DNA of 64,000 nt from an uncultured Alphaproteobacteria bacterium. Lineage in GTDB: Bacteria > Pseudomonadota > Alphaproteobacteria > RF32 > CAG-239. The notes under the pieces are model-generated. The model did not search any database. It saw only the letters and a list, made by a program, of their open reading frames with translations, and was not told the DNA's origin. Below are positions 8,295 through 64,000 of the stretch, piece by piece. The stretch is taken from the NCBI GenBank assembly GCA_934271715.1, contig CAKQRZ010000009.1:9613-73612 (forward strand), read 5' to 3'. The stretch's first letter is position 1. Each line of letters opens with the position of its first letter. Both the position numbers and the translations under genes were made by a program.

Positions 8295-8948
8295 CTAAAA
8301 TCTTATGCCGATATTGCATTCTCCGTCTAAACCATCGCAAAATTTGCACATCGCCTGAAAATCTGAAAGTGTGGACGAGGCTATACATTTTCGGTCTTTC
8401 GTACCGCAATATTTAGCGCCGTAACGGGTTGTTCCAGACCAATCATTTGCTGAATTAGCAACAGTAACGCGGAATAGCTCCGAACTTAGCGGCAAGGCGA
8501 GGTTATTCAATAATTCCGTGCATAGCTTAACCGAAAAGTTTACGCTTACCGACGCACCGCTTTCATTTTTAGTGGTTCCGCCTAAATACATATCAAAAGA
8601 TAGGAGTTCGCCGTTCAAAAGATAGGCAGCTACGTTATTTCCCTGAGAATCCTTATACCATATCTTGCTTTGTTTAACCCAGCTCTCTGGCACCATATTC
8701 ATTGCCGCCATAGTATCTGCGAGAAATACCTGATTTTGCGGATTAGAACGTAACAGATTGTCTTTATGCTCCAGCAGCTGAAAAATAACATTGCTGTATT
8801 CTTCCACCAATTTATTAACTTTAAACTTCTCCATAGCCTTGGAGTAACCGGCGATACCACCGACACTTAACACACCGATAATCGCCAGCACTCCCAGCAT
8901 TTCTATCATGCTGCGGCCAAAGGAATTTGCGCCTCTAGCACCCGTCAT
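8295..8948 (-). CDS. Type IV pilin-like protein with Cys-rich C-terminus (paralogue 1)
   Basis: MTGARGANSFG|RSMIEMLGVLAIIGVLSVGGIAGYSKAMEKFK prepilin-type N-terminus; C-terminal CKFCDGLDGECNIGIRF. The ORF stays open in frame upstream to 9395 through the GC-rich modules. Confidence 0.75.
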   Translation of the reverse strand: MTGARGANSFGRSMIEMLGVLAIIGVLSVGGIAGYSKAMEKFKVNKLVEEYSNVIFQLLEHKDNLLRSNPQNQVFLADTMAAMNMVPESWVKQSKIWYKDSQGNNVAAYLLNGELLSFDMYLGGTTKNESGASVSVNFSVKLCTELLNNLALPLSSELFRVTVANSANDWSGTTRYGAKYCGTKDRKCIASSTLSDFQAMCKFCDGLDGECNIGIRF

Positions 8949-9440
8949 ACTAGGCCCTGTGCCTAGTATCTTGTGGCACCAAGGGCGTGGCAATCCAGAA
9001 CCCTCGCCCCGTGAGGGAGAGGGGGACGCCTTGGCGTCGGGTGAGTGGTACTTAAAGAACGAGCAAAAGGCACTAGACAAGCGTTCCCGGCACCAGCCTG
9101 AAACGTCATACTTGTTGCCACACCCCACAGGCTGTGGCAGACGAGTATCCATGACTTTGTTGCTGTAAGCAACGCTTTTTTGTTTACTTGCCACCAGAGA
9201 GAACCCGCGTCCCCGGCACCAGTCATTCTTGGGTTTATCCCAAGAATCTTCTCTCAATAGGCACTTATTTAATAAGGCTAATTTATTGACTAGGTTAGAT
9301 ACTTGTTGCCAGAAGATTCTAGGCACAGGGCCTAGAATGACTGGTGCTAGGGACGCTAGCTTAGTGTTTGTTGTGGTGTTTGTGTTACCCCTCACCCGGA
9401 GCGCTGCTCCGACCTCTCCCTCAAGGGGCGAGGCTGTCAG
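8949..9440. repeat. GC-rich palindromic leader modules (modules C1, D, C2), with an inverted second C1+D copy at 9297-9440
   Basis: ctaggccctgtgcctag hairpin, gacgccttggcgtc palindrome, ccctcgccccgtgagggagaggg hairpin, and the block encoding MDTRLPQPVGCGNKYDVSG. 8935-8990 and 9297-9356 are about 85% identical in inverted orientation. Confidence 0.7.
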
Positions 9441-9490
9441 TTTGCTTCTGTGCGTGTTATTTCTGAATATATCATTTTTTCTGCCAAACC

Positions 9491-9660
9491 CTGCAAAAAC
9501 GTGCTTGACGGCAGAAAAAGCGTCTTTAATCAGATGTTCAGGATTTGCAGAGAGAGAGAGAGAGACCTTTGCTTAGCTTATTTTTCATCTTTCTTTCCTC
9601 ATTTTTAAGTTAATTTACATTTTTATTCTATGCCAGCCATATTCCCTATGTCAACCGGAA
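9491..9660 (-). promoter_or_regulatory. Class A pilin leader: sigma70-like promoter, RBS and uORF with a (CT)n tract
   Basis: Minus-sense TTGACA-N17-CATAGAAT, then gaggaaagaaagATG; uORF MKNKLSKGLSLSLCKS* contains the 17-nt tc run (plus 9549-9565). This is followed by a ctgcaaa/tttgcag inverted repeat. Confidence 0.6.
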
Positions 9661-9676
9661 AATGAATTAGCATATT

Positions 9677-10336
9677 TTAAAAATCTATAGTAACAGAACA
9701 CACTTCTTTTTTTGAACAAAGTTCACAGTTGTCATGTATTTCGCTGATACTAATGTTATTTAAACACTTTCGTCCTGCAGAACAATTTTTATCGCCATAA
9801 AAAATTGATGAATTTCCAGCAGATCTAAAAAAAAGTAATAGTTCTAAGGAAGAATGTAAGGGCTTAACCACATTACTGACAAGTTCGGTACAAAATTTAG
9901 TGGAAAAATTTTCGGTTATCCATGAACTTTCATCAGGAAATTGTGAACCACCTAAGACAAAATCAAAACGAAGATTTCCGTTTCTTGAATAAATAGCGAT
10001 AATATTGCTATATGGGTCTTCAAATAAATTTTCTTGTGTAGAATCTAAATTATTTGTTTTCATATTCCAAGTTGGCGGAACTAAATTTAAAGCGTTTGCT
10101 AGTTTTATAAGTGGAGTAGTTTTTCCGTCCACATATTTAGTGGAATATTTAAATTCATCTAGGTGTTCCAACATTCCATAAATTAAGTAGCTATATTCTT
10201 CAATCGCCTTATCAAGCTTAAATTTCTCCATAGCTTTGGAATATCCGGCTATTCCGGCAACGCTCAGTACGCCGATAATCGCCAGCACGCCGAGCATTTC
10301 AATCATGCTTCTCCCTTTTTCTAAATTCTTATACAT
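9677..10336 (-). CDS. Type IV pilin-like protein with Cys-rich C-terminus (paralogue 2)
   Basis: MYKNLEKG|RSMIEMLGVLAIIGVLSVAGIAGYSKAMEKFK; C-terminal CELCSKKEVCSVTIDF. GGAG RBS sits before MYKN. Confidence 0.8.
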   Translation of the reverse strand: MYKNLEKGRSMIEMLGVLAIIGVLSVAGIAGYSKAMEKFKLDKAIEEYSYLIYGMLEHLDEFKYSTKYVDGKTTPLIKLANALNLVPPTWNMKTNNLDSTQENLFEDPYSNIIAIYSRNGNLRFDFVLGGSQFPDESSWITENFSTKFCTELVSNVVKPLHSSLELLLFFRSAGNSSIFYGDKNCSAGRKCLNNISISEIHDNCELCSKKEVCSVTIDF

Positions 10337-10366
10337 ATTTCTAACTCCGTTTAATTTGTTGTACAT

Positions 10367-21671: not shown

Positions 21672-21718
21672 GAAAATTCATGTACTTCTGTGTATGCTAA
21701 AATTTTCTCTCTTAGTAT
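21672..21718. terminator. Hairpin terminator (agagagaaaatt...aattttctctct), copy 1
   Basis: 11-bp inverted repeat plus T-run; the same stem recurs at 22966-22998, flanking the pilin cassette. Confidence 0.5.
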
Positions 21719-22374
21719 CAAAATTCTAAAACTATGGCGCAGATTTTTTCTTCATCAATACAATAGTTGCAAATATCATTGATATCAGAAAGCGTAATTG
21801 AGCTTAAACATTTTGCGTTTGGATTATCCTTGCATGTGCTGTCTCCATAATATGCAGCACCGGATTTATATGTAAAAAAGATATGGTGTACGGCAGAATG
21901 CAGAGGCTGAACCAAATCAGTCATTAAACTTTGACAGAGTTTACCCGAAAAATTAGTATTGTGAGCAATATTGCCGTCTTCATCCAAAGCGCCGCCCAGA
22001 TACATGTCTATAACCAGCCGGTTGTTGCGTGAAAATAATTGAATAATATTGCCGTAAGGGTCATACATTCGGCGGAAGTTTATTTTTTTATAGCTATCCG
22101 GAACCAGATTTAAGCCAAAAGCAAAATCAATCAGTCCGGCAGATTCTATAAGGTTGGTATTTTCGCTGTTTAGTTTTTGTATATAGTCTAAGTTTTCCAA
22201 CAGTCCATAAATTAACATACTGTATTCATCCATAGCCTTATTGAGCTTAAATTTTTCCATAGCTTTGCTATATCCGGCAATGCCGCCGACACTTAAAACT
22301 CCTATAATCGCCAAAACGCCGAGCATTTCAATCATACTGCGGCCAAGCGGGTTTGTGCCTCTGCCACCAGTCAT
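21718..22374 (-). CDS. Type IV pilin-like protein with Cys-rich C-terminus (paralogue 3)
   Basis: MTGGRGTNPLG|RSMIEMLGVLAIIGVLSVGGIAGYSKAMEKFK; C-terminal CNYCIDEEKICAIVLEF. The ORF is open upstream to 22617 through modules C1, D and C2. Confidence 0.75.
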   Translation of the reverse strand: MTGGRGTNPLGRSMIEMLGVLAIIGVLSVGGIAGYSKAMEKFKLNKAMDEYSMLIYGLLENLDYIQKLNSENTNLIESAGLIDFAFGLNLVPDSYKKINFRRMYDPYGNIIQLFSRNNRLVIDMYLGGALDEDGNIAHNTNFSGKLCQSLMTDLVQPLHSAVHHIFFTYKSGAAYYGDSTCKDNPNAKCLSSITLSDINDICNYCIDEEKICAIVLEF

Positions 22375-22720
22375 CCTAGGCCGTGACGCACAGTCTGTAC
22401 CTAGGATCTTGTCGCACCAAGGGCGTGGCAATCCCTCTCCCCCTGCGGGAGAGAGTGACGCCTTGGCGTCGGGTGAGGGGTATTTAAAGGACTCGCAACA
22501 AGAATTAAATAGGCGCCTAAAGCCCAAACCCGAAACGTCATACTTGTCGCCACACCCTGCAGGCTGTGGCAGACGAGTATCCATGATTTTGTTGCCAACG
22601 GCAACGCATATTGACATTGCTTTAGCAATGGCGTTATGGATTCTCCGCCATGGTACTTCCGGCAGGGAGTACCGGCGAAGAATGACGCTGAGAGTGGAGG
22701 CGGAAAAGCGCGTGAACGTG
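22375..22720. repeat. GC-rich palindromic leader modules (C1, D, C2 and an extended C2)
   Basis: cctagg...cctagg hairpin, gacgccttggcgtc, ctctcccgcagggggagag, and the block encoding MDTRLPQPAGCGDKYDVSG. 22560-22700 is the reverse complement of 62470-62640. Confidence 0.7.
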
Positions 22721-22781
22721 CCGCCTGCTAGTTTAGTTCTTAATGCGTTATTTCTGAAAGTGTCATCTTTTCTGCCAAACC

Positions 22782-22960
22782 CTGCAAAAACGTGCTGAGC
22801 GGCAGAAAATATGCCTTTAATCAGATGTTTAGGATTTGCAGAGAGAGAGAGAGAGACCTTTGAATAGCTTATTTTTCATCTTTCTTTCCTCTTATTTTAG
22901 TTAATTACTATACTCATTCTATACCAGCCGCACTCCATAAGTCAACCGTAAAATCAAAAT
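22782..22960 (-). promoter_or_regulatory. Class A pilin leader (promoter, RBS, uORF with a 17-nt tc tract)
   Basis: Minus-sense TTGACT-N17-TATAGAAT; uORF MKNKLFKGLSLSLCKS*; run at 22840-22856. Confidence 0.6.
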
Positions 22961-29678: not shown

Positions 29679-29984
29679 ATGGTTTTAGGCGTGACAGACA
29701 AAGAACAGCGGATTATAGAAGATATTTTAGACGCTTATGCGGATAGTTATGCCTTTTATTACTATGGTTCGCGCGTAAAAGGCAATTTTGAAAAGACCTC
29801 TGATTTAGATGTTTTAATCAAAGGTCAAAAAGAAATGCCGCTGTTTATTTTAAGCGAGCTGAAAGAAAAATTTGACGCCAGCTATTTGCCGTACATTGTC
29901 AATTTTTCCGATTATCACAATATCACGCCTGATTTTTATGAGCATATCAAGCAAGATTTGGTTAATTACAAAGCAAATGCTTAA
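29679..29984 (+). CDS. Minimal nucleotidyltransferase (HI0073/MntA-like antitoxin)
   Basis: YYYGSRVKGNFEKTSDLDVLI matches the GS...DxD NTase motif; 101 aa. Confidence 0.65.
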   Translation: MVLGVTDKEQRIIEDILDAYADSYAFYYYGSRVKGNFEKTSDLDVLIKGQKEMPLFILSELKEKFDASYLPYIVNFSDYHNITPDFYEHIKQDLVNYKANA

Positions 29985-30787
29985 AACTCCAGAGTTACGG
30001 TACAGCTTTGCACGCCGCCTTCACAGCCGTTGCATTCATCGTTAATTTCGTCCAGAGTAATGTCGTTAAGGCATTTTTTGTCGCCGCCGCAATAGGCATC
30101 GCCGTAAAATTGCGTATTGTTGGCGCCGGATTTATAAATCCATGCATATTGCACGGCACTATGCAGCGGCTGAGCTAAATCGCTCATCAGGGCGCGGCAT
30201 AGCTTAACCGGAAAATAAGGTGTGAATCCGGTGCCATCATCATTATTTGTAAAACCGCCAATATGAAAATCCATAACCAAATTGCCGCCGCGGGAAAAAA
30301 CACTAACCATGTTGCCGTCAGAATCAATAAGCTGATTTATGGCGTTGTTGCTATGCCAATCGGCAGGAACTAAATTTGCCGCAAGCACATAGTCGCGCAG
30401 CCCGCATTCTTGCCAATTTGCTACCCAATCATTACATTTCAGCTTCTTAAATTCGTTTACATTTCCAATCATTCCCGCCACTAAATAGCTGTATTGTTCT
30501 ATAGTTTTGTTGATTTTAAACTTTTCCATCGCCTTTGAATAACCGGCAATCCCGCCAACCGATAATACTCCAATTATTGCCAGAACGCCTAGCATTTCAA
30601 TCATACTGCGGCCAAGCGGGTTTGTGCCTCTGCCACCAGTCATCCTAGGCCGTGACGCACAGTCTGTACCTAGGATCTTGTGGCACCAAGGGCGTGGCAA
30701 TCCAAAACCCTCGCCCCGTGAGGGAGAGGGTGCAGACTTGTCTGCGGGTGAGGGGTACTTAAAGACATTTTCAAATAATTTATACAT
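29981..30787 (-). CDS. Type IV pilin-like protein with Cys-rich C-terminus (paralogue 4); leader extended in frame by palindromic modules
   Basis: GGAGG RBS then MYKLFENVFKYPSPADKSAPSPSRGEGFGLPRPWCHKILGTDCASRPRMTGGRGTNPLG|RSMIEMLGVLAIIGVLSVGGIAGYSKAMEKFK; C-terminal CNGCEGGVQSCTVTLEF. Modules D and C1 (gcagacaagtctgc palindrome, cctagg hairpin) insert 150 nt in frame relative to paralogue 2. Confidence 0.7.
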   Translation of the reverse strand: MYKLFENVFKYPSPADKSAPSPSRGEGFGLPRPWCHKILGTDCASRPRMTGGRGTNPLGRSMIEMLGVLAIIGVLSVGGIAGYSKAMEKFKINKTIEQYSYLVAGMIGNVNEFKKLKCNDWVANWQECGLRDYVLAANLVPADWHSNNAINQLIDSDGNMVSVFSRGGNLVMDFHIGGFTNNDDGTGFTPYFPVKLCRALMSDLAQPLHSAVQYAWIYKSGANNTQFYGDAYCGGDKKCLNDITLDEINDECNGCEGGVQSCTVTLEF

Positions 30788-31030
30788 ATTTCTAACCTCC
30801 GTTTAATTTGTTGTATGCAAAACAAAACCCACCAAAATGGCGGGCGGATGTTGAGAAACCGTATATAACCAAACGGCTCGGCTTATTCAGCTCATAGCCA
30901 TATTCAGCCGACATCCGCTCAAGCGAAAATCGGCATAACAAATTTAAGTCGTTTATGCATAACGACTGGTTATATAAAGGGTTCTCACGCCCTAGACAGA
31001 CTATAGCCTATCCAACAATCATTTTAGCTA
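30788..31030 (-). promoter_or_regulatory. Class B pilin leader with terminator hairpin
   Basis: Minus-sense ...catccgcccgccattttggtgggttttgttttgca just before the RBS; 7-bp hairpin agtcgtt-atgcat-aacgact near the 5' end. Confidence 0.55.
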
Positions 31031-54154: not shown

Positions 54155-54787
54155 TTATCTCCAGCTCATTCCAACGTAGCAAGAATCCTTTTTTACGCAG
54201 GATTTACAAATTGTACTTATTTCAGAAAGCGTCATATCAGACAGACATTTTACTTCCTTTGTGAAATCGGAATTATAGCAGGTTGTTGTATAAACCATAA
54301 AACTGTCGCTGTTGGTTATTGCGTCATTAGCAATAAATAGCGCGGCGTAATCCATATTTGCTGCTAAAGGATATACAACATCATGCGACAAAGCTAAGCA
54401 TAATTGATAAGCATATTCAGAATCTTTGTTTATTCCGTCTGGAACAATGTATATGTCGGAGGTAAAAACAGTACCGGATGGAACTGGATTAACATAGGTA
54501 TTGATTTTATTTCCCAAAGAATCGGTTATAAATTGCTTGTTTACCAATTTCCAAGTTTCCGGCACCAGCTTTGCGTCTATAATAAACTGGGATAAGAATC
54601 TGTTGTCATAGTCTCCTGAGTAGGTTTTAAATAAACTTTCCTGATATTCCATTAGACCGGTCATAAGCATAGTATATTCTTCGGTCATTTTGTTGATTTT
54701 GTATTTCTCTATTGCCTTGGAATATCCGGCGATTCCACCGACACTCAGCACACCGATAATGGCTAGAACGCCCAGCATTTCAATCAT
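54155..54787 (-). CDS. Type IV pilin-like protein (paralogue 7), with no in-frame ATG for a leader peptide
   Basis: The ORF begins directly at MIEMLGVLAIIGVLSVGGIAGYSKAIEKYK; Cys-containing C-terminus CKSCVKKDSCYVGMSWR. A 60-codon open frame with no ATG lies upstream (...TSPLEGEGYTG-RS-MIEML). Confidence 0.7.
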   Translation of the reverse strand: MIEMLGVLAIIGVLSVGGIAGYSKAIEKYKINKMTEEYTMLMTGLMEYQESLFKTYSGDYDNRFLSQFIIDAKLVPETWKLVNKQFITDSLGNKINTYVNPVPSGTVFTSDIYIVPDGINKDSEYAYQLCLALSHDVVYPLAANMDYAALFIANDAITNSDSFMVYTTTCYNSDFTKEVKCLSDMTLSEISTICKSCVKKDSCYVGMSWR

Positions 54788-54882
54788 ACTCCGCCCGGTA
54801 TAACCCTCTCCCTCAAGGGGCGAGGTTGTAGGTTTTGTTCTGTGCGTATTATTTCCGAATGTGTGATTTTTTACGCTGAACT

Positions 54883-55050
54883 CTGCAAAAACGTGCTGAG
54901 CGGCAGAAAATATGCCTTTAATCAGATGTTTAGGATTTGCAGAGAGAGAGAGAGAGACCTTTGCTTAGTTTATTTTTCATCTTTCTTTCCTCTAAAATTA
55001 TGTTGTTTACGTACCAATTCTATAACAGACGTTTAACTAAAGTCAACAGG
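54883..55050 (-). promoter_or_regulatory. Class A pilin leader (promoter, RBS, uORF with a 17-nt tc tract)
   Basis: Minus-sense TTGACT-N17-TATAGAAT, then gaggaaagaaagATG; uORF MKNKLSKGLSLSLCKS* (plus 54930-54980); tract at 54941-54957. Confidence 0.6.
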
Positions 55051-61201: not shown

Positions 61202-61870
61202 TCAATAAGTTATAACAATAGAACAAGTTCCGTTGCTGTCTCCGCAGGTATGGCAAGCTGCGTTTATTTCTGCCAGAGTTACGTTTTTTAGGCATTTTTT
61301 ATCAGCACCGCAATAATTATTTCCATACCATAACTGATTAAGAGTTTGCGCACCTCCACGCCATACATAGGAATAATCCACAAATTCGGAAAGCGGCTGT
61401 ACAAAGTTTAGAAACAACTCACGGCAGAGCTGAACTCGCTGTTCAGCTAAAGAGTAAGAATCTTTAACCTCATATTCTTCCAGCAGATAAATTTCAAAAA
61501 CTAAATCTGAACCGCCCCGCCATATCTGTATTCGGTTATTAAGCCGGTCATGAACATTGCTGGCGTTATCATATGTCCAAGAAGTTGGAATAGCGTTTAG
61601 AGACTGCATTATATCGGCATAGCCGCTGCCGTTTGGAACTTTTCTAATATCATCCAAATGCTCAATGGCTCCAAACATAAAATGGGTATATTCACTAATC
61701 AGTTGATTAACCTTCCACTTTTCCATCGCCTTAGAATATCCTGCAATTCCTCCGACTGTTAAAACGGCAATAATGGCTAGAACGCCCAGCATTTCAATCA
61801 TTGACCGACCGGCTGAAACTGCGTATAGCGGCGCATCTAAAGCAGTTTTACGCTGTCTCAAAAAATTCAT
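61202..61870 (-). CDS. Type IV pilin-like protein with Cys-rich C-terminus (paralogue 8)
   Basis: GGAGG RBS then MNFLRQRKTALDAPLYAVSAG|RSMIEMLGVLAIIAVLTVGGIAGYSKAMEKWK; C-terminal CHTCGDSNGTCSIVITY. The ORF-track start at 61978 has no RBS. Confidence 0.75.
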   Translation of the reverse strand: MNFLRQRKTALDAPLYAVSAGRSMIEMLGVLAIIAVLTVGGIAGYSKAMEKWKVNQLISEYTHFMFGAIEHLDDIRKVPNGSGYADIMQSLNAIPTSWTYDNASNVHDRLNNRIQIWRGGSDLVFEIYLLEEYEVKDSYSLAEQRVQLCRELFLNFVQPLSEFVDYSYVWRGGAQTLNQLWYGNNYCGADKKCLKNVTLAEINAACHTCGDSNGTCSIVITY

Positions 61871-62037
61871 GTACCTCCAATGTACACTAGGATTTTTTTC
61901 GCAGCTAGAAACCACTTTATCTACACCGCTCTCCGCAGTTTTGAAGAATTTTGCGGCGCATTGACGCACGGCATCCAAAGTCTTAAATGCGATGTTGGTT
62001 AGGTTAATTTCTTGTTTGCTGATTTTTTCAAAAAACT

Positions 62038-62215
62038 CTGCAAAAACACGCTGAGCGGCAAAAAATACGCCTTTAATCAGATGTTTAGGATTTGCAGAGA
62101 GAGAGAGAGACCTTTGCTTAGCTTATTTTTCATCTTTCTTTCCTCTTAAATTAAGTTGTTTACTAGATTTATTCTATACCAGCCTTACTCCATAAGTCAA
62201 CCGCAAAATCAAGGC
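62038..62215 (-). promoter_or_regulatory. Class A pilin leader with a shorter, 15-nt tc tract
   Basis: Minus-sense TTGACT-N17-TATAGAAT; uORF reads MKNKLSKGLSLSLQILNI* because the tract (plus 62096-62110) is one dinucleotide shorter than in the other three copies. Confidence 0.6.
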
Positions 62216-62407: not shown

Positions 62408-62425
62408 ATAATAGGAGGAATAAGA

Positions 62426-64000
62426 TGTTGAAGAGTATGAATTTTTTAAGAGGAAAGAGCAGGGAAAGAGTAAGTGGAGGCGGCACTTCCGTTTGCAGCG
62501 TCATTCTTCGCCGGTACTCCCAGCTGGAAGTACCATGGCGGAGAATCCATAACGTCATTGCGCATGCAATGTCAGTATGCGTTGCCGTTGGCAACAAAGT
62601 CATGGGTACTCGTCTGCCACAGCCAGCAGGGTGTGGCGACAAGTATGACGTTTCTGGTTGGTGCTTGAAACGTGGGTTGAGAGCCTTTAGCACCTTTACT
62701 ATTAAAGCAATGTCAATATTAGCATTTATTTGCTTATTTGCAACCGCGGCGGAGGCGAAGATTTGCTTTTTGCCGGACGGCAGCTGCGGCACCGCTAAAA
62801 CAACCGGATTTAAGCAGAATCCCAACGGAAGCGGATGTATGTATAAATCGGAAGCCGAAGCCCGAAACGGTTTAGGCGCCTGTGAAACCACATATAAGCA
62901 AAACATGTGCTATTATCGGCGCTGCAAGACCGAAGACAATAATATATTTGCAGACGAAGCAAGCTGTAAGAAGAAAGCCGAGGATAACAATCTAATCTGC
63001 GTAAGCTGCGGAGGTTGCTATAAAGTTACGCCGAAAACCTGCCCGAGCGGGTACACGGCAGGCTTAACCACCTGTGCGGAAAAAGCCGGATATACGGCAA
63101 GTTATTCAAGCAACGGCTATGCCGGATATAGTGTCTGCGGCAAGTGCAAATATACCATAAAACCGTGTGAAAGCGGCTATACGGTAGGTTTGGCAAGCTG
63201 TCCGGAAAAACAAGGTTATACTTCAGATTATTCCCGAAACGGAGTTTCAGGCGAACAGGTTTGCGGCAAGTGCGACTATACGGCAAAGAGCTGTGCCGGA
63301 GGTTATACAGCGGGTCTGACAAGCTGCAGCGAGCGCCAAGGCTACACGGCAAGTTTAGTCAGCAACGGCTATGCCGGGGAGTTGGCTTGCGGAAAATGCT
63401 GTTATACGGCAAAAGGCTGCGCTAGCGGTTATACAGCAGGTCTGACAAGCTGCAGCGAACGGCGCGGATATAATGCAAGTTATGCCAGCAACGGATATTC
63501 CGGCGAGAAAATTTGCGGAAAATGCGACTACACGGCAAGAACTTGTCCATATGGATATTCTACAAAATATAGCAGCGTCAGAGTCTGCGGATATCCAGGA
63601 GGCTGGAACTATGCTACTAACGGATATTCTGGAGATGCTGTATGCGGAAAATGTACAGAGAAAACGTGTCCTAGCGGGTCTTGGGTGTCTAGTGGTTCTC
63701 CTGACTGCAGCAGTTATGGTAAGGATTATTGGTGGAAAAATACAGGCGCAAGTGGAAATATGGATTGCTATACATGTGAACAGAAACAATGTCCTAGCGG
63801 ATCTGGTAAATATGAAAAGTATGGAACAGCAGGATGTGGGGATAAAAGTAATCTTGGATGGACTGCAAAAATAGTTGGAAGGGCAGGAGAAATGTATTGC
63901 ACAATATGCACACCCAAAGCTTGTCCTAGTGATTATCCTATAACTAATATTTCACAATGTCCTAAAAAGGTTAATGGGTCAGGAACATTTTCTCCGTATT
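62426..64000 (+). CDS. Secreted protein with tandem Cys-rich repeats (partial, runs off the window end); its leader is translated through GC-rich module C2
   Basis: GGAGG RBS and ATG at 62426 are in frame through ...MSVCVAVGNKVMGTRLPQPAGCGDKYDVSGWCLKRGL... into MSILAFICLFATAAEA (ATG at 62710). At least six tandem repeats of about 36 aa follow: C.SGYTAGLTSCSERQGYTAS..SNGYAGE..CGKC.YTAK. Missing from the ORF track because there is no stop inside the window. Confidence 0.65.

Follow-up and report, generated by a model that had tools for sequence, protein, structure and literature searches.

Switches in which a coding repeat turns a surface-protein gene on or off are textbook in pathogens and little documented in gut commensals. 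Two described systems are closest to the one reported here. The opa genes of Neisseria carry CTCTT repeats in the sequence coding for the leader peptide, at ~11 loci, and switch at a rate of ~10^-3 (PMC3745409). In oipA of Helicobacter pylori, CT repeats lie in the 5' coding region (PMC10564699). Here we analyze a 64 kb stretch of DNA (the window) from an uncultured human-gut alphaproteobacterium and propose that slipped-strand phase variation of a coding CT repeat switches each gene of a prepilin family, a reading that we consider very probable. Members of the family share a 5' element, the class A leader; the window has four such loci and a related MAG no fewer than 24. The type of switch is already known; new here are the organism, the pilin cargo, the copy number, and the very long modular leader. 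In the literature we found no report of SSR switching for type IVb pilins, nor of this system in gut Alphaproteobacteria.

Class A leaders and the pilin genes downstream

The window contains eight paralogous genes with the invariant N-terminus GRSMIEMLGVLAIIGVLSVGGIAGYSKA. Four of the eight lie downstream of class A leaders, one pilin-like gene for each of the four leaders, and all class A features are on the minus strand. The leaders are ~170 nt each, with a mean column identity of 75% in an alignment of the four copies and a near-invariant core that runs from GAGGAAAGAAAGATG to ...TTTTTGCAG; a 25-nt block, GCAAATCCTRAACATCTGATTAAAG, has four exact matches in the window compared to 0 expected. 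Every leader has the same order of elements: TTGAC[AT]-N18-TAGAAT, 36-37 nt, a GAGG RBS, the ATG, codons for MKNKL(S/F)KG, and a (TC)nT tract. The -35 and -10 elements are conserved in all four leaders and the sequence of the promoter spacer differs, while the RBS and ATG are invariant, as is the whole of GAGGAAAGAAAGATG, the RBS/start region. The tracts are perfect, start 23 nt past the ATG, and are the sole dinucleotide repeats in the 64 kb. The features of the four loci are as follows (↓ marks the predicted cleavage position).

9625..9654, minus strand: locus 1 promoter, TTGACA-N18-TAGAAT (from sequence and the four-copy alignment)
9586..9600, minus strand: locus 1 RBS (GAGG, 9597-9600) and putative prepilin start ATG (9586-9588), with GAGGAAAGAAAGATG invariant
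9549..9565, minus strand: locus 1 (TC)8T tract, 17 nt, OFF; ON needs 13 or 19 nt
9538..9588, minus strand: locus 1 OFF-state ORF, MKNKLSKGLSLSLCKS followed by a stop, initially annotated as a uORF
8919..9548, minus strand: locus 1 putative leader-peptide spacer, 210 codons without a stop in the pilin frame, with reusable modules
8295..8918, minus strand: locus 1 G↓RS cleavage motif (8910-8918) and predicted mature type IVb-like pilin
22916..22945, minus strand: locus 2 promoter, TTGACT-N18-TAGAAT
22877..22891, minus strand: locus 2 RBS and start codon
22840..22856, minus strand: locus 2 (TC)8T tract, 17 nt, OFF; orthologues in other assemblies have 15 or 17 nt with identical flanks
22345..22839, minus strand: locus 2 putative leader-peptide spacer, 165 codons without a stop
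21718..22344, minus strand: locus 2 G↓RS motif and predicted mature pilin
55017..55046, minus strand: locus 3 promoter, TTGACT-N18-TAGAAT
54978..54992, minus strand: locus 3 RBS and start codon
54941..54957, minus strand: locus 3 (TC)8T tract, 17 nt, OFF; other strains carry 15 or 17 nt in the same smpB-linked slot
54797..54940, minus strand: locus 3 putative leader-peptide spacer, 48 codons without a stop and without an in-frame start codon
54155..54796, minus strand: locus 3 G↓RS motif and predicted mature pilin (the 54155 gene)
62171..62200, minus strand: locus 4 promoter, TTGACT-N18-TAGAAT
62131..62145, minus strand: locus 4 RBS and start codon
62096..62110, minus strand: locus 4 (TC)7T tract, 15 nt, in the second of the two OFF phases (MKNKLSKGLSLSLQILNI, then a stop)
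61811..62095, minus strand: locus 4 putative leader-peptide spacer, 95 codons without a stop
61202..61810, minus strand: locus 4 G↓RS motif and predicted mature pilin

The short ORF opened by the leader ATG encodes MKNKL[S/F]KGLSLSLCKS with 17 nt and MKNKLSKGLSLSLQILNI with 15 nt, each followed by a stop. Much of this layout had been recognized in the initial annotation of this DNA: four class A leaders, each with a promoter, a strong RBS, and an ATG opening a uORF; a tc run of 17 nt in three copies and 15 nt in the fourth; and a uORF C-terminus that changes with the tract, from ..LSLCKS to ..LSLQILNI. We saw all four leaders, on the minus strand, and measured the same tract lengths. The promoter spacing needs correction; the N17 given before [CT]ATAGAAT is really N16, which equals N18 before TAGAAT. 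More importantly, the leader ORF is very probably not a separate uORF but the out-of-frame 5' end of a prepilin gene, so that the class A leader would be the true 5' end of that gene.

We also considered that the leaders might act as a riboswitch or attenuator. A search of the whole window with Rfam at gathering thresholds returned two tRNAs only, leaving the leaders without a match, and a terminator scan at locus 3 found none. Folding of the locus 3 leader RNA yielded no significant structure (z = -0.91). A 13-nt inverted repeat, TTTTCTGCC/GGCAGAAAA, was found, but it is absent from loci 3 and 4. Given the fold score and the loss of this repeat from two of the loci, we dropped the idea.

The product of these genes appears to be a type IVb-like pilin. 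The sequence G↓RSMIEMLGVLAIIGVLSVGGIAGY is invariant in 8/8 window paralogues and has the features of a class III signal, with Gly at -1, Glu at +5, and then ~20 hydrophobic residues. Pfam at default thresholds left the pilins without a family; at E-values up to 10, it gave sub-threshold N_methyl matches only, correctly placed, and the NCBIfam pilin matches were likewise correctly placed and sub-threshold. The pilin N-terminal HMMs PF07963 and TIGR02532 scored 12-16 bits, below their cut-offs of 21.2 and 16.3. In the AlphaFold2 model (eight window paralogues; pLDDT 74.7, pTM 0.72), a helix of ~47 residues is followed by a beta-sheet, a predicted fold akin to that of solved type IVb pilins; a Foldseek search returned nothing significant and no pilin match. 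Related proteins carry the label "MAG: Alphaproteobacteria bacterium", and the names of some mention a prepilin-type N-terminal domain. A Pfam scan of the ~20 larger ORFs in the window found no pilus machinery or prepilin peptidase gene. The long leader would be cleaved at the G↓RS motif, and the class A products would be assembled into pili, if their sequences are a guide.

Tract length and reading frame

Upstream of MIEML, the pilin frame is open for 221, 180, 59, and 107 codons at loci 1-4, and at 4/4 loci the upstream limit of this open frame is a stop within the first codons of the leader ORF. Over the 51-213 codons between the tract and G↓RSMIEML, the pilin frame has 0 stops compared to 2-19 in the other frames (4/4 loci); when these stretches were subjected to mononucleotide shuffling, the frame stayed open in 1, 9, 1057, and 23 per 20000 trials for loci 1-4, respectively. 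The leader ATG and the pilin ATG are separated by 1 mod 3 nt at the 17-nt loci and by 2 mod 3 nt at the 15-nt locus. An in silico tract of 13 or 19 nt yields a single ORF of 273-431 aa that ends at the natural pilin stop, whereas 11, 15, 17, or 21 nt leads to a stop after 14-20 aa, in both cases at all four loci. Given that the tracts are 17, 17, 17, and 15 nt and that only 13 or 19 nt is in frame, all four window pilin genes are in one of two OFF phases.

Locus 3 had drawn particular attention in the initial annotation, which reported a pilin frame open for ~63 codons without an ATG and predicted that one more TC unit would give a fused ORF at 54155. The open stretch 5' of MIEML is 59 codons, somewhat shorter than reported, and indeed lacks an in-frame ATG, as well as GTG and TTG. 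The fusion does occur in silico, although its product reads MKNKLSKG(LS)3ANP... rather than containing (LS)4, and it is not limited to 54155 but applies to all four loci.

Exact-pattern scans turned up 41 loci among species-representative genomes and 55 on metagenome contigs; the smpB-linked locus (window locus 3) was also taken from nine further assemblies. Hadza and other gut metagenomes supplied the closest assemblies, and one Hadza gut MAG, CAKQDU01, has 24 class A copies. Among 105 related copies in public assemblies, the tract is 15 nt in 72, 17 nt in 26, 13 nt in six, and 19 nt in one; an allele with a 25-nt tract (L117 / P0139) was found separately. The lengths (13, 15, 17, 19, and 25 nt) differ in 2-nt unit steps only, and of these only 13, 19, and 25 nt are in frame. 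The mod-3 relation between tract and frame is strict in 66/67 public copies, the one exception being degenerate:

15-nt tract: leader-to-pilin ATG 2 mod 3, 47 copies, OFF
17-nt tract: leader-to-pilin ATG 1 mod 3, 15 copies, OFF
13-nt tract: leader-to-pilin ATG 0 mod 3, 3 copies, ON
19-nt tract: leader-to-pilin ATG 0 mod 3, 1 copy, ON

Intact ON alleles exist. Three with a 13-nt tract are full length, L039 (267 aa), L052 (268 aa), and L087 (278 aa), with products that run from MKNKLFKGLSLSANPKHLIKG...GRSMIEML... to the pilin C-terminus. Four more 13-nt alleles are intact (P0147, P0156, P0200, and P0237), and so is the 25-nt allele P0139 / L117, which encodes 387 aa. Degenerate copies are few (P0001, P0048, and L072); the pilin is truncated in P0001 (ON, 19 nt), and P0048 (ON) has a frameshift further downstream.

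Several pairs of copies differ at the tract and almost nowhere else. At the PFOR-linked locus (window locus 2), the 17-nt copy L110 and the 15-nt copies L111 and L112 show 100% identity across 400 nt of upstream and 1400 nt of downstream flank, and L115 (15 nt) otherwise equals L116 (17 nt) over 1400 nt. L060 and L078 are one tract unit apart, with 99.6% identity over 1000 nt and no further gap, and in L048 versus L051 (99.3% identity) the tract is the sole gap. On this comparative evidence, the CT tract is a hypermutable site. All of the identical-flank differences are 15 versus 17 nt, both OFF, and no ON/OFF pair was found at any one locus with identical flanks. Nor did we find an ON version of locus 3 in the protein database or of locus 2, where cluster members are at most 301 aa. 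In assemblies from other samples, the window's own strain keeps 17 nt at locus 2 (L107-L109) and locus 3 (L047), so that consensus tract states are stable on that scale. The initial annotation had named slipped-strand phase variation as an explanation and tract lengths in related genomes as a check on it. That comparison, with its 2-nt steps in at least 105 copies, flanks 100% identical over 1.4-1.8 kb, and intact ON alleles, supports the explanation.

These data suggest the following model. A sigma70-type promoter, probably active constitutively, and a strong RBS would drive translation from the ATG of MKNKL(S/F)KG into the (TC)nT tract directly after it, which would encode (LS)n. With 13, 19, or 25 nt, ribosomes would read through the long leader to G↓RSMIEML, a prepilin-peptidase-type site, and on into the pilin (ON). 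With 15 or 17 nt, they would enter the two other frames and meet a stop 8-10 codons on (OFF), so that the supposed uORFs would be peptides of 16-18 aa. Replication slippage would add or remove CT units, and each paralogous locus would switch independently. One or a few pilin variants would probably be displayed per cell, with most loci OFF in the population consensus. ON alleles make up 7/105 copies compared to an expected 1/3 (p = 7e-11), and 93% of the related copies are OFF, at 15 or 17 nt; such rarity would be expected in a population consensus if one or a few of ~24 loci were ON per cell. The reversibility of switching within a clone and its rate we infer from sequence, and its biological role from analogy: given Opa-type surface variation, immune or phage evasion is a possible one.

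The same predominance of 15 and 17 nt would fit recoding at the RNA level, in which these alleles are functional because the ribosome or RNA polymerase slips by 2 nt on the CU repeat. In principle, CUC and UCU codons on a dinucleotide repeat could re-pair perfectly with their tRNAs after a +2 or -2 slip, so that a fraction of translation would reach the pilin frame with the DNA unchanged. Recoding would also suit the conservation of promoter, RBS, ATG, and perfect repeat above a downstream frame that is still open, as well as the steady consensus of 17 nt in the same strain across samples. However, 15 nt needs -1/+2 and 17 nt needs +1/-2, so that no single programmed direction would serve both, and we find no slippery heptamer, no significant downstream structure (z = -0.91), and no Rfam match. 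The tracts thus lack the one direction, slippery site, and stimulatory element by which programmed frameshifting is recognized, and we know of no bacterial case of efficient slippage by 2 nt on (CU)n. Moreover, tract changes at the DNA level and intact in-frame alleles exist, and they explain the open frame without recoding. We therefore consider recoding very unlikely as the main mechanism. Frameshifting or transcript slippage may still make a minor contribution, and, as a less likely option, OFF alleles may owe some basal expression to 2-nt slippage on the CU repeat.

The spacer and the cleavage site

Between the tract and the pilin lies a spacer that is free of stops in 72/73 public copies. 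It has 38 distinct lengths, from 153 to 918 nt, 37 of which are multiples of 3. Directly 5' of MIEML, G-R-S is present in 69/73 copies and is written by 23 codon triplets, with both CGN and AGR in use for Arg and both TCN and AGY for Ser. Given that G-R-S is kept as amino acids through 23 codon combinations, ribosomes must come from upstream. By these properties, the spacer is coding.

The same features bear on whether class A genes are silent or decaying cassettes, either pseudogenes or pilS-like recombination donors, with the CT tract a drifting low-complexity remnant. Most copies are out of frame and a few are degenerate, as described above. In addition, strains differ in the pilin cassette that a given chromosomal slot contains, and the leaders are mosaic, which indicates that recombination between paralogues is active. 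But every copy has its own promoter, RBS, and ATG, unlike pilS, and more than 100 copies have kept a perfect repeat. From tract to pilin, the 50-300 codons are open and in register, where pseudogenes would gain stops and non-triplet indels; this argues for recurrent selection on translation from the leader ATG and makes decay highly improbable. As in opa, recombination and phase variation can go together.

It is scarcely credible that the leader ORF is a regulatory uORF controlling a pilin whose own start is the internal MIEML ATG (the control acting through coupling, reinitiation, or attenuation, with tract differences incidental): a short ORF with a strong RBS does precede 4/4 window genes, there is an ATG at MIEML, and some paralogues have a GGAG-like stretch a few bases upstream of it, but the OFF stop lies about 140-630 nt from that ATG in the window loci instead of adjoining it, the intervening sequence is under coding constraint (stop-free and of triplet length in 37/38 architectures, neither of which a UTR would need, with G-R-S conserved through synonymous changes), a start at MIEML would cost the protein residues +1 and +2 and shift its conserved Glu from position 5 to position 3, the short-leader paralogues start MYKNLEKG↓RSMIEML, and no terminator-like or significant RNA structure is present. 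The uORF-dependent coupling offered in the initial annotation fails on the distance of the stop and on the 23 codon combinations for G-R-S.

If the leader ATG is the start of the prepilin, class A leaders in the ON state would be about 60-220 aa long in the window and up to about 315 aa elsewhere, outside the short range (about 5-30 aa) of type IV pilin leaders. We know of no type IV prepilin leader near the 60 to >300 aa of class A. The window paralogues outside class A have short leaders of 7-8 aa (MYKNLEKG↓RS, MYKNFEKG↓RS, and MKQNQLG↓RS). Compared with these, class A looks like a short leader, MKNKLSKG, that has been split from G↓RS by the repeat and a long translated spacer. This resemblance of MKNKLSKG to the canonical short leader MYKNLEKG↓RS, at a distance from G↓RS, led us to consider splicing or ribosomal bypass. 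We rejected both because the intervening DNA is stop-free, comes in triplets, and has 38 lengths, and because in-frame alleles exist.

Reusable in-frame DNA modules make up the leaders, and one or more of these modules occur in both orientations, stop-free either way. Within the window, these modules are found only in the 5' leader regions of pilin genes and of one gene for a Cys-rich repeat protein. A codon-position test on the conserved leader gave 0.081, 0.123, and 0.071, with no third-position excess, the 28 nt that served as search pattern being invariant by ascertainment; the lack of third-position bias suggests that the leader sequence is conserved at the DNA level, by gene conversion, and not at the peptide level. 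We tentatively suggest, as a doubtful but possible account, that the modules are mobile or recombining in-frame elements, either tolerated in a cleaved cytoplasmic leader or having a function of their own, for example in switching rate, mRNA fate, or processing. If so, they would superimpose a new layer on ordinary SSR phase variation. Leaders this long and modular would also probe the limits of prepilin peptidase substrates.

Comparison with known phase-variable and pilin systems

If the model is correct, an uncultured alphaproteobacterium of the human gut has Opa-like ON/OFF surface variation at many loci, which is relevant to the ways in which commensals alter their adhesins and phage receptors when IgA and phages exert pressure. 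There is also a practical consequence. Gene callers place the starts either at MIEML or at arbitrary codons inside these genes, so that MAG catalogues mis-annotate the family, its real N-termini, and whether it is ON or OFF.

Among type IVb major pilins, prepilin leaders are typically 13-30 aa. Class A leaders would be many times longer, and compared with the major pilins CofA, TcpA, and PilS of S. Typhi/R64 the class A products share a sequence identity of only 9-12%, fall below the Pfam and NCBIfam cut-offs, and have no assembly genes nearby.

As a switch, class A is most like Neisseria opa (PMC3745409). Both consist of scattered multicopy genes for surface proteins, each with its own promoter and start codon, in which a pyrimidine-rich repeat within the part coding for the leader peptide determines the frame; in both, most copies would be OFF at any time and recombination occurs among loci. 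The two differ in the repeat unit, a CT dinucleotide in class A and a pentamer in opa, and in the product, a predicted type IVb-like pilin as opposed to an outer-membrane beta-barrel. Unlike that of opa, the class A leader would be a class III (prepilin) leader, cytoplasmic and 60 to >300 aa long. Class A also has at least 24 copies per genome compared to about 11 for opa, and its host is an uncultured gut alphaproteobacterium.

The H. pylori genes oipA, sabA, hopZ, and babB share with class A the CT unit, its position just after the start codon, and the Leu-Ser leader repeats, and they are turned ON and OFF by slipped-strand mispairing (PMC10564699), as we propose for class A. In H. pylori, however, these are single-copy genes for outer-membrane proteins with Sec signal peptides, whereas class A is a large family of pilin paralogues in which the promoter-leader cassette is shared and homogenized and a long translated spacer separates it from the cleavage site.

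Like Neisseria pilE/pilS, class A draws pilin diversity from many paralogous cassettes and recombination, and the contents of a slot vary by strain. In contrast, a pilS copy has neither promoter nor RBS, is missing the conserved N-terminal coding part, and becomes expressed only once gene conversion has brought it into pilE. Each class A copy is a complete expression unit that would be gated by its own repeat.

Spacer modules in the leader peptides

The spacer translated between the CT tract and the prepilin cleavage motif (G/RS) is a mosaic of reusable modules, both in the window and at related leader loci from public assemblies (L-numbers). Module-bearing regions in the window include:

8919-9548, minus: spacer of locus 1
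22345-22839, minus: spacer of locus 2
30614-30790, minus: further module-bearing region

Examples of modules are APVILGLVPRILWQRVSNLVNKLALL; FKYPSPDAKASPSPARGEG..RPWCHKILGT..MTGARG; ..VILRRYSLLEVPWRRIHN.IAKAMSICVAVGNKVMDTRLPQPAGCGDKYDVSG; LLRRCTPRNDA; and NIAFKGLDVVRQY...DAPLYAVSAG. In the window and the L-loci, module combinations yield at least 38 spacer architectures of 153-918 nt; the spacer is stop-free in 72 of 73 public copies, and 37 of 38 lengths are multiples of three. The pilin at 29981-30787 (minus), which is not class A (promoter, RBS, ATG and a (TC)nT tract ahead of a type IVb-like pilin gene), carries one module within an otherwise short leader, MYKLFENV...G/RS.

Within the window, the modules are confined to the 5' leader regions of pilin genes and of one gene for a Cys-rich repeat protein, whose 5' part (MLKSMNFLRGKS...VILRRYSQLEVPWRRIHNVIAHAMSVCVAVGNKVMGTRLPQPAGCGDKYDVSGW) shares a module with the locus 2 pilin leader:

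62425-64000, plus: Cys-rich repeat-protein gene
62608-62651, plus: its spacer module
63260-63538, plus: its 126-nt tandem repeat

The module is followed by MSILAFICLFATAAEA, which looks like a Sec signal peptide. For the relatives P0148 and P0161, the gene calls start at the upstream ATG.

Strain differences at the smpB-linked slot

We compared locus 3 of the window (54155-55050) with L010 and L043-L051, which occupy the same smpB-linked chromosomal slot. Strains share 97-100% identity across the promoter and the flank upstream of it; divergence starts directly 3' of the ATG, and beyond the leader both the spacer (153, 171, 177, 264, 315 or 603 nt) and the pilin gene differ by strain. This pattern indicates that paralogues swap cassettes or convert one another, in which case the conserved leader would provide the 5' homology.

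Coverage of the tract-length census

The longest tract found, (TC)12T (25 nt, positions 170-194), is that of L117, from a Hadza sample (ENA ERZ4559900). It is in frame and yields a full-length prepilin of 387 aa (P0139, itself a cluster of 14 sequences); the locus adjoins a pyruvate kinase gene. Since L117 escaped our DNA search pattern through two substitutions directly 3' of the tract, the census under-samples divergent leaders. Many public contigs, including L001, L008, L014, L017, L027, L058, L088, L089 and L091, start or stop inside the leader or a few bases from the CT tract, which could mean either that assemblies break at a leader present in many copies or that tract length varies among the reads. 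The GTDB record CAVKTH01, titled 'Bacteroidaceae bacterium', holds 14 class A leaders (L003, L007, L008 and others) of the kind typical of Alphaproteobacteria MAGs; this bin is probably mislabelled or mixed.

Tandem paralogues and a two-way module at locus 1

9677-10366, minus: short-leader pilin gene, MYKNLEKG/RS, without the repeat
8295-9588, minus: locus 1
9207-9257 and 9306-9356: oppositely oriented copies of one spacer module in locus 1 (51-nt arms, 78% complementary)

Because the short-leader gene stops 23 nt upstream of the locus 1 -35 box, the two form a tandem of a non-switching and a switching paralogue. Read in the pilin frame, the locus 1 module is free of stops whichever way round it lies (LAPVILGPVPRIF.. 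and ..KILGTGPSMTGARG). Judged by analogy, this two-way module recalls in-frame palindromic elements such as the RPEs of Rickettsia.
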